From a virus (taxonomy: Duplodnaviria > Heunggongvirae > Uroviricota > Caudoviricetes): 25,451 nucleotides of DNA. Every line of letters starts with the position of its first letter. Position 1 is the stretch's first letter. Positions 1 to 10,104 of this stretch are shown piece by piece. A program made the position numbers and the translations under genes. The notes beneath the pieces are model-generated. The model made no database searches. It saw only the letters and a program-made list of their open reading frames with translations, and was not told where the DNA came from. The stretch lies in IMG/VR virus record IMGVR_UViG_2711768005_000002; one strand, given 5' to 3'.

Positions 1-257
1 GGTTATCGCTCGCCACGGGAATATCTGCGGCAGCGGGCTTGTAATGGGTTAAGTGATAACAGATGTCTGGAAATATAGGGGCAAATCCAATCGTCGCCGT
101 ATTCCCGTATTAACAGAGACCGTAGCCCGACGGGGAACTCCTTCTGCGCGAGTGTGCGGGAATAATCAAAAACGATGCACACCGGGGTTACCGGGTACAC
201 ATATTTCATCATGCCAGCGAGTCCGGTTCTGGCACGGAAGAAACCGGACGTTATGAT

Positions 258-668
258 TTAGTGCGGAAATATTTGTGTAGTGTTCTGTATGTTCTCAGTA
301 AAGAGTAATGAATTATCAAAGGTATAGTAATACCTTTTGTTTTCGTGGATATTTGTAATCCATCTGAAAACCCCTGCTGTAGCAAGATTTTTCCTGTATT
401 CGTAAAATGATAACTCTCCTGATTTGAATCCTTTTAAGGTGGCTTCTATAAGGCATTTATTTTTTGAAAATCTTACATTTACAACCTTACCCTGTCCTTT
501 TATTAAAACCGTATTATCGTTTTCAAGAACAAGATGAATATTCTCTGTGGCTAAATAGTAAATGTAATGTGAGACATTGTGACGTTTTAGTTCAGAATAA
601 AACCAGTGATAGTTTAAATTATTTCGCACTTTATCGAATATTTGTTTAAAAATGGCAACCTGAGCCAT
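258..668 (-). CDS. hypothetical protein, about 136 aa from the internal ATG (141 aa if the first ATG at 683 is used); low-GC moron-like gene
   Basis: 141-codon open frame in roughly 30-35% GC DNA, where stop codons are frequent by chance. GAAGG Shine-Dalgarno-like motif 6-11 nt upstream of the ATG at 668. Sits directly downstream of, and on the same strand as, the 726-959 gene. No catalytic motif or hydrophobic segment recognised. Confidence 0.5.
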
Positions 669-725
669 TGTAGTACCTTCCATGTGATATGAGGGGGCGT
701 AGTCTGCACGATTATCTAAATTGCT

Positions 726-959
726 TCAATCTGGTCTAACCTGTTTTCTGAGCAATTCAGTAATGTCACTCTTTTCTTTGTTTGCTTCAGGCGAAACTCT
801 TTTTTCTGAGCACAGTCTCCGGCGGCAGGCTTCAATGACCCAGGCTGAGAAATTCCCGGACCCTTTTTGAACAAGAGCGATGTTAATTTGTTCAATCATT
901 TGGTTAGGAAAGCGGATGTTGCGGGTTGTTGTTCTGCGGGTTCTGTTCTTCGTTGACAT
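726..959 (-). CDS. small basic DNA-binding protein, probable ribbon-helix-helix (Arc/MetJ/CopG-like) regulator, 77 aa
   Basis: N-terminus MSTKNRTRRTTTRNIRFPNQMIEQINIALVQKGSGNFSAWVIEACRRRL has the basic beta-strand followed by two short helices typical of RHH proteins. Fold assignment is by eye only. Confidence 0.5.
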   Translation of the reverse strand: MSTKNRTRRTTTRNIRFPNQMIEQINIALVQKGSGNFSAWVIEACRRRLCSEKRVSPEANKEKSDITELLRKQVRPD

Positions 960-1128
960 GAGGTTGCCCTGTATTCAGTGTCGCTGATTTGTATTGTCTG
1001 AAGTTGTTTTTACGTTAAGTTGATGCAGATCAATTAATACGATACCTGCGTCATAATTGATTATTTGACGTGGTTTGATGGCGTAGATGCACGTTGTGAC
1101 ATGTAGATGATAATTATTATCATTTTGC

Positions 1129-1176
1129 GGGTCCTTTCCGGCGATCCGACAGGTTACGGGGCGGAAGGCGCGCGGG
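1129..1176 (+). promoter_or_regulatory. cos: cos site: cosQ-like segment and cosN terminase nicking region; cohesive-end equivalent at 1159-1170
   Basis: Sequence ...GGGTCCTTTCCGGCGATCCGACAGGTTACG / GGGCGGAAGGCG / CGCGGGTTTTCGCTATTTATGA matches the lambda right-end/left-end junction, except the 12-nt overhang position reads GGGCGGAAGGCG where lambda has GGGCGGCGACCT. Confidence 0.8.
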
Positions 1177-1345
1177 TTTTCGCTATTTATGACAATTTTC
1201 CGGTTTAAGGCGTTTCCGTTCTTCTTCGCCGTAACCTAATGTTTTTATTTAAAACACCCCCTGAAAAGAAAGGAAACGACAGGTGCTGAAAACGGGCTTT
1301 TTGGCCTCTGTCGTTTCCTTTCTCTGTTTTTGTCCGTGGAATGAA
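1177..1345 (+). promoter_or_regulatory. cosB: cosB region (Nu1-binding R elements and IHF site) between cosN and nu1
   Basis: Position and near-identity to the lambda left-end leader (CGCGGGTTTTCGCTATTTATGA...AAAGAAAGGAAACGACAGGTGCTGAAA...) immediately upstream of nu1. Individual R sites not delimited. Confidence 0.7.
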
Positions 1346-1347
1346 CA

Positions 1348-1867
1348 ATGGAAGTCAACAAAAAGCAGCTGGCTGACATTTTCGGTGCGAGTATCCGTAC
1401 CATTCAGAACTGGCAGGAACAGGGAATGCCCGTTCTGCGAGGCGGTGGCAAGGGTAATGAGGTGCTTTATGACTCTGCCGCCGTTATAAGATGGTATGCC
1501 GAAAGGGATGCTGAAATTGAGAACGAAAAGCTGCGCCGGGAAGTTGAAGAACTGCGGCAGGCCAGCGAGACAGATCTCCAGCCAGGGACTATTGAGTACG
1601 AACGCCATCGACTTACGCGTGCGCAGGCCGACGCACAGGAGCTGAAAAATGCCAGAGACTCCGCTGAAGTGGTGGAAACCGCATTCTGTACTTTCGTGCT
1701 GTCGCGGATCGCAGGTGAAATTGCCAGTATTCTCGACGGGATCCCCCTGTCGGTGCAGCGGCGTTTTCCGGAACTGGAAAACCGACATGTTGATTTCCTG
1801 AAACGGGATATCATCAAAGCCATGAACAAAGCAGCCGCGCTGGATGAACTGATACCGGGGTTGCTGA

Positions 1868-1893
<26 letters not shown>
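1348..1893 (+). CDS. nu1: terminase small subunit
   Basis: 181 aa; MEVNKKQLADIFGASIRTIQNWQEQGMPVLRGGGKGNEVLYD matches lambda Nu1 (N-terminal winged helix-turn-helix). Confidence 0.95.
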
Positions 1894-5574
<3,681 letters not shown>

Positions 5575-9712: not shown

Positions 9713-10104
9713 AACATACTGAACTCCGTGCAGCCGTACTGGATGCACTGGAGAAGCATGACACCGGGGCGACGCTTTTTGATGGTCGCCCCGCTGTTTT
9801 TGATGAGGAAGATTTTCCGGCAATTGCCGTTTATCTCACCGGCGCTGAATACACGGGCGAAGAGCTGGACAGCGATACCTGGCAGGCGGAGCTGCATATT
9901 GAAGTTTTCCTGCCTGCTCAGGTGCCGGATTCAGAGCTGGATTCGTGGATGGAGTCCCGGATTTATCCTGTGATGAGCGATATCCCGGCACTGTCAGATT
10001 TGATCACCAGTATGGTGGCCAGCGGCTATGACTACCGGCGCGACGATGATGCGGGCCTGTGGAGTTCAGCCGATCTGACTTATGTCATTATCTATGAAAT
10101 GTGA
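9709..10104 (+). CDS. U: tail terminator protein U
   Basis: 131 aa, [68 protein letters not shown]... = lambda gpU; ATGA overlap with Z. Confidence 0.9.

Follow-up and report, generated by a model that had tools for sequence, protein, structure and literature searches.

Two minus-strand genes next to cos in a lambda-like phage, of the DUF1398 and YlcI/YnfO families, are probably independently mobile prophage accessory genes

In a lambda-like phage, two small open reading frames (ORFs) are present on the minus strand just left of cos, opposing the late genes, as an earlier note on this DNA had described, and both are real, conserved genes of catalogued families to which the catalogues assign no function. 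The first, ynfO, encodes a member of the YlcI/YnfO family (DUF3950) and the second encodes a DUF1398 protein. In our judgement the two are probably independently mobile accessory genes (‘morons’) of lambda-like prophages rather than parts of a single obligate two-component system. Databases already covered both genes and families, one solved structure and the exact arrangement, through lambda, the Qin and DLP12 prophages of Escherichia coli K-12 and PGAP annotation. Added here are a negative result on the toxin-antitoxin or two-gene reading, a modest positive result on a ribbon-helix-helix (RHH) fold of YnfO, warnings on database labels and candidate regulatory inputs through a PdhR-type and a Fur-type box.

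The window, i.e. the whole stretch of 25,451 nucleotides that was analysed, belongs to a lambda-like phage or prophage in which the cos region is followed by Nu1 (1348-1893) and terminase gene A (1868-3793). The remainder is a complete plus-strand morphogenetic operon and the phage is apparently intact. All features discussed are collected in Table 1. For the DUF1398 gene the 136-aa form is preferred, because a GGAAGG Shine-Dalgarno sequence precedes the ATG at 668, nothing comparable is read ahead of the alternative start at 683, and the lambda imm21 record, in which a ribosome binding site is annotated at the equivalent position, uses the same start. The GC content amounts to 0.314 for 258-668, 0.444 for 726-959 and 0.519 for 1348-25451; the description of the pair as one AT-rich cassette therefore holds for the DUF1398 gene and fails for ynfO, which is only mildly under the phage average. 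The long open frame noticed in this AT-rich DNA was borne out as well, since in segment 230-720 it spans 153 codons and exceeds all of 2000 shuffles (mean 59, maximum 129). A moron position had also been proposed, with which the location between the lysis-side genes and cos, the GC content of 0.314 against 0.519 and the scoring of lambdap78 as non-essential by CRISPRi (PMC10695390) agree; judged by its composition, ynfO conforms to it weakly. The genes are separated by 57 nt and share one reading frame with a single TGA (then A) between them, which makes co-transcription quite possible. Downstream of the DUF1398 gene, ORF 3..212 is a further candidate gene; PhiR49_1 has a shorter form of 53 aa that is annotated as a hypothetical protein, and no Pfam family was matched.

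Table 1. Positions of the genes, candidate signals and other features in the window
Feature	Position	Strand	Remarks
Third co-oriented ORF, candidate gene	3..212	-	69 aa, GC 0.52, downstream of the DUF1398 gene
DUF1398 ORF	258..683	-	141 aa; internal ATG at 668 gives 136 aa (258..668)
Most divergent DUF1398 segment	402..521	-	about aa 50-89: loop after strand 3 and helix 3
Shine-Dalgarno GGAAGG	676..681	-	7 nt ahead of ATG 668; read from the sequence
Candidate sigma-70 promoter TAGACC-16-GATAAT	711..738	-	9/12 in consensus scan; inside the 3' end of ynfO
ynfO/ylcI-family ORF (DUF3950)	726..959	-	77 aa; stop TGA at 728-726
PdhR-box-like palindrome AACAGGTTAGACCAGAT	729..745		GGTnnnACC core; overlaps the -35 element and the ynfO stop
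Inverted repeat ATCAATTAATACG / CGTCATAATTGAT	1029..1061		13-nt arms, 85% complementary
Promoter-like GTGACA-16-TATCAT	1096-1123	+	consensus scan; towards cos/Nu1; overlaps the Fur-box-like site
Fur-box-like site	1109..1127	-	16/19 to the consensus GATAATGATAATCATTATC; 0.01 expected per window
cosN cohesive-end position	1159..1170	+	placed by aligning with the cos site annotated in phage DE3; reads GGGCGGAAGGCG

Sequence and profile searches confirmed that the 136-aa protein has conserved homologues and identified it as a DUF1398 protein (PF07166; E 3e-43, 147 bits, cut-off 22, profile positions 1-119 of 119). It is 76-78% identical to E. coli YdfO and to lambda p78/YbcV, and it matches the NMR structure of YdfO (2HH8; E 1e-69, about 78% identity), of which it shares the three-dimensional fold. 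YdfO in 2HH8 is a soluble monomer, and the DUF1398 architecture is a soluble tandem in which a helix-helix-three strands unit occurs twice, i.e. a duplicated alpha-alpha-beta3. Beyond YdfO itself, structure comparison yielded no analogue among solved or viral predicted structures and no toxin or defence-protein neighbour. The protein displays no recognisable catalytic motif, and on direct reading its sequence contains neither a signal peptide nor a hydrophobic segment. The gene is under purifying selection with a dN/dS of 0.2-0.35, the strand regions showing values of 0.04-0.2 and the helical parts evolving faster, up to 0.65 (aa 57-97). At the nucleotide level, identity to the alternative allele is 0.60-0.73 in the most divergent segment, with about 0.6 over 402-491, compared to 0.93-1.00 at 701-1000.

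The 77-aa protein matches PF13132 (DUF3950; E 2e-20, 72.8 bits, cut-off 25) and the NCBIfam model NF041551 YlcI_YnfO_N (35.2 bits, cut-off 30), and PGAP names an identical gene ‘YlcI/YnfO family protein’. Its conserved N-terminal 50 residues hold a basic arm (KNRTRRTTTR), a putative strand (NIRFP) and two helices, and they are followed by a variable, mosaic C-terminal tail. Compared with the alleles of HNH-type Stx phages, the first 50 codons show a dN/dS of 0.03-0.10 at a near-saturated dS of 0.8-1.6. Listings of DUF3950 homologues are dominated by near-identical E. coli and lambda-control sequences; a Pasteurella phage ‘repressor’ that had appeared as a homologue was discarded as spurious, being a match to the wrong strand of the annotated gene.

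The signature of an RHH protein that the earlier note had seen in YnfO was retained in part. The basic arm is present, and the AF2 model contains helices at 19-32 and 34-52 (pLDDT about 80) after an extended segment with NIRFP, to which no strand is assigned in the monomer; a turn G33-S-G-N-F-S38 can be read directly from the sequence. Conversely, Pfam, phmmer and hmmsearch against the PDB, and BLASTP against Arc gave no significant RHH match. When the family was compared by hhalign with an RHH alignment put together by hand, the strand, helix A and the G-x-x-S turn were aligned in register (P 5e-4, probability 31%) with a score of 20.1, compared to 8.4±1.9 (maximum 15.0) for 200 column-shuffled versions of this template, none of which reached it (0/200). 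This margin makes RHH the best structural guess for YnfO, a fold that we regard as plausible and not as established.

Both families are abundant, and their pairing is confined to part of their range. The 771-bp region is matched in 3800 of 5426 complete E. coli genomes (about 70%) and is, according to BLASTN, common to many lambdoid phages; in many E. coli prophages the pair is annotated side by side, by PGAP as ‘DUF1398 domain-containing protein’ and ‘YlcI/YnfO family protein’. In the complete E. coli genomes, the DUF3950 N-terminal segment is found at 9861 places in 4184 genomes and a full-length prophage-type DUF1398 in 3011. Comparison of gene neighbourhoods supported adjacency within the lambda-like subgroup and not outside it: among 155 fetched loci searched by local tblastn, adjacency of DUF1398 and DUF3950 is limited to DUF1398 proteins with 71% or more identity to that of the window, and all more distant DUF1398 genes (53% identity or less) lack DUF3950 within 4 kb. 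The latter comprise the YcgX group (44-53%) and genes of Klebsiella, Kluyvera, Raoultella, Pseudocitrobacter and Salmonella (34-39%), which reside in varied chromosomal contexts, often beside prophage remnants, and such partnerless orphans persist under purifying selection. Stx-type phages, on their side, carry DUF3950 without DUF1398, divergently oriented and 41 bp away from an HNH endonuclease gene located ahead of TerS-TerL. Moreover, DUF1398 alleles of 100% and of 76% identity both occur linked to a single YnfO type (97-100%), and identity breaks at about position 700, so recombination separates the two genes.

A conserved read-through of the UGA, leading to a YnfO-DUF1398 fusion, was considered and rejected, as 32 of the 86 adjacent loci are out of frame (54 are in frame) and the fusion is rare. 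The fused allele (protein P0290; TGA changed to TGG, 233 aa) was encountered on 6 short contigs only, and hints at some functional compatibility of both proteins.

Some orphan DUF1398 genes (L119 and L131, also L142 and L148) occupy the same chromosomal spots across genera. By eye, their neighbours include yeeE-yeeD-like ORFs upstream in Escherichia sp. and Klebsiella and a ttcA-like ORF in Pseudocitrobacter; ttcA is the Rac attachment site in K-12. The right end of lambda also turns up in dozens of assemblies from unrelated taxa, among them Pedobacter, Cohnella, Flavobacterium, an Arcanobacterium ‘plasmid’ and Kitasatospora, usually on contigs of some 3.5 kb (L094-L130; ENA). This looks like contamination of public assemblies with lambda control DNA, and it makes the host range of both families seem wider than it is.

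Upstream of the DUF1398 gene, the candidate sigma-70 promoter inside ynfO remains a candidate only, because the scan returned 4 sites in 1..1400 compared to 2.5 expected. For ynfO, the same scan yielded no minus-strand sigma-70 promoter at its threshold, and no clear terminator was found. The palindrome AACAGGTTAGACCAGAT that overlaps the candidate promoter agrees at all consensus positions with AAcaGGTcagACCAgaT, the PdhR site (10/14) listed by genomic SELEX in the ynfO/ydfO row of K-12, and in the same work ybcV mRNA was down 10-fold in a pdhR mutant (PMC7660256).

On the other side of ynfO, an inverted repeat is located 70-100 nt upstream of its start and is identical in lambda; from its sequence it is a possible operator. 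HNH-type phages lack such a repeat ahead of DUF3950; there the upstream DNA is HNH coding sequence and is unrelated to that of lambda-type loci beyond about 45 nt. An operator common to both types of loci was rejected, as they share no k-mers above chance. Between ynfO and cosN, about 35-50 bp left of the latter, lies a Fur-box-like site, scored against the Fur consensus GATAATGATAATCATTATC. The site is kept (L160 1873-1891, L090 3548-3566) in lambda/DE3 and in a Qin-like prophage and is absent from one HNH-type locus examined. By its location it could serve the divergent ynfO/ylcI as well as Nu1/noh; a 2007 paper on clusters of Fur sites reportedly names nohA, the Nu1 homologue of Qin.

The cosN sequence itself deviates from that of lambda, reading GGGCGGAAGGCG here versus GGGCGGCGACCT in lambda and in PhiR49_1 (98.6% identical), a clustered change of 5 of 6 positions, with the surrounding DNA nearly unchanged. 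The variant 30-mer is shared by 7 fetched IMG/VR loci, compared to 63 with the canonical one, and this recurrence indicates a natural allele and not an error. An Rfam scan of 1-1500 produced miRNA matches at chance level only, at the cosB hairpin.

Published data show that homologues of the DUF1398 gene respond to various conditions. ybcV was up more than 1000-fold upon expression of T4 MotB, which alters H-NS-dependent repression (PMC7827196), was up in a sabinene-tolerant strain (PMC7181518) and was among the genes most repressed by copper (PMC13618251), while ydfO is strongly induced by ionic liquid (PMC4077768). A ybcV overexpression clone had a changed glycogen content (PMC2853380). Lambda p79/ybcW was scored as ‘essential’ by CRISPRi (PMC10695390), which may be due to a polar effect on late transcription through cos. 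In the literature searched, no function has been assigned to the DUF1398 or the DUF3950 family. The statement that YdfO overexpression increases oxidative stress resistance (PMC4077768) was left unused, since the cited work, Wang et al. 2010, concerns YfdO. That paper (PMC3105296) names YfdK, YfdO and YfdS of CPS-53 and ydfO nowhere; the confusion is probably a mix-up of gene names, carried on e.g. into PMC8711792.

According to the explanation we prefer, that of two independently mobile accessory genes, the N-terminal 50-residue domain of YnfO would most likely form an Arc/Mnt-type RHH dimer with a basic arm, by which YnfO would bind DNA as a putative transcriptional regulator. Regardless of terminase type, lambdoid phages retain ynfO directly ahead of the packaging module and in the opposite orientation, and its transcription would run leftward from the cos-proximal spacer. 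The DUF1398 gene would most likely be transcribed from a promoter of its own in the 3' end of ynfO, with the PdhR-type box, and as such be expressed from the prophage under particular physiological conditions. Its GC content of 31% makes silencing by H-NS-like proteins probable, as judged from composition and one overexpression study. The protein, soluble, cytoplasmic and seemingly non-enzymatic, would then probably act by attaching to a partner of host or phage origin, with the faster-evolving helical face as its contact surface, presumably to the benefit of the lysogen.

A small regulator followed by an effector had suggested a toxin-antitoxin module to the earlier note, and in this type II toxin-antitoxin or abortive infection reading YnfO would be RHH antitoxin and autorepressor, with a tail that neutralises a DUF1398 toxin. 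The layout and the two-gene interpretation do not hold up well against the distribution of the genes. Conserved co-inheritance, expected of such a pair, is lacking in either direction, orphan DUF1398 genes are maintained by selection without a partner, and in lambda an opposite-strand gene is placed between the two. The YnfO tail is mosaic and does not track the supposed toxin, the same 77-aa YnfO being found with DUF1398 alleles that are 24% apart. DUF1398 resembles no known toxin or defence protein in its fold, and homologues have been overexpressed with lethality unreported: the ybcV clone gave a glycogen phenotype and not lethality (PMC2853380), and YdfO was produced for NMR (2HH8), presumably in E. 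coli. We therefore consider a toxin-antitoxin system quite improbable. The moron position, the foreign composition and expression in the prophage state, together with a very high prevalence with several copies per genome and a fast segment localised in an otherwise constrained DUF1398, would instead suit a prophage function in superinfection exclusion or counter-defence, exerted by DUF1398 alone or under regulation by YnfO, with the variable helical segment determining specificity. PADLOC-DB 2.0 has no matching model (DUF1398 gave a chance-level hit to Csx23, E 0.023, and YnfO none), comparison with solved and viral predicted structures gave no similar fold, not even the variable segment reaches a dN/dS of 1 and such a phenotype is unreported in the literature searched, so that we rate this possibility as unlikely. 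A more specific version, with DUF1398 as a stand-alone superinfection block or neutraliser of host defence acting through the fast helical segment and YnfO as a cos-proximal RHH regulator of such accessory genes, metabolically gated by Fur, PdhR or both, is likewise put forward as a speculation with a low probability; if true, it would provide functions for two of lambda’s last unassigned genes.

The position of the genes allows two other explanations. Lambda DNA enters the cell with its right end first, and given a leftward cos-side promoter, ynfO (and here DUF1398) would be open to transcription before all other genes, in analogy to T7 gene 0.3 or the T5 pre-early genes. Consistent with such immediate-early ‘leading-end’ genes, ynfO is nearest to the right cohesive end and points inward in lambda-type phages, and in HNH-type phages DUF3950 likewise flanks the packaging module on its right-end side. 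The promoter scan, however, gave nothing convincing for ynfO, the HNH-type phages have HNH coding sequence upstream, cryptic prophages, from which no DNA is ever injected, keep and express homologues, and knock-down of lambdap78 caused no plating defect, which leaves this explanation very improbable. That the 136-aa protein would be a component of virion or envelope we consider extremely unlikely. What speaks for it are database labels, PHROG 413 going by the name of ‘head protein’ and lambda p78 by that of ‘putative envelope protein’, whereas lambdap78 is dispensable for plaque formation, the DUF1398 gene is transcribed against the late operon, the protein has no signal peptide or hydrophobic segment and a soluble monomeric NMR structure, and orphan chromosomal copies lie far from structural modules. 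The labels are likely misleading, as sequence, structure, orientation, CRISPRi data and orphan copies offer them no support.

Both families are among the last genes of lambda and of the K-12 prophages that lack an assigned function, and as most E. coli genomes contain them, a function for either would be broadly relevant.

The closest comparison is lambda itself, which by BLASTN carries both ORFs, in a common orientation, between its lysis genes and cos, a point on which the earlier note had been undecided. Its DUF1398 protein, the annotated p78, is 76% identical to that of the window and its DUF3950 protein is 95% identical over residues 1-55, with a differing C-terminal tail; the small ORF (64 aa, about 48109-48303, minus strand) is unannotated in J02459 and annotated in newer records. 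From ynfO to cos the spacer hardly differs between the two, the Fur-box-like site included. In lambda, about 560 extra bp separate the pair and carry the opposite-strand gene p79/ybcW (L001 2364-2570, plus strand), which is absent from the window, and as such lambda has the layout ybcV-ybcW-ylcI of DLP12. A 2026 preprint on an NADase defence domain is said to mention lambda p79. Downstream of the pair, lambda has bor, whereas relatives of the window have KilA-N/ORF11CD3 genes. The adjacent layout of the window is that of ynfO-ydfO in the Qin prophage of K-12, from which the DUF1398 protein differs by 24%, mostly at aa 57-97; unlike in Qin, the pair belongs here to a lambda-like phage that is apparently intact and has its full set of morphogenetic genes.

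With the RHH repressors Arc, Mnt and AmrZ, YnfO has in common the pattern of N-I-R-F-P, a predicted helix, a G-x-x-S turn and a second predicted helix, and it differs from them by an unusually long Arg/Thr-rich N-terminal arm and by the lack of a significant match to any curated RHH model or solved RHH chain. Finally, the lambda ‘morons’ bor and lom, classical genes of lysogenic conversion, encode envelope proteins with known phenotypes, whereas YnfO and DUF1398 carry no export signals; both sets of genes resemble each other in their position in or at the end of the late region, their atypical composition and their dispensability for lytic growth, and bor in addition shares the orientation against the late genes.
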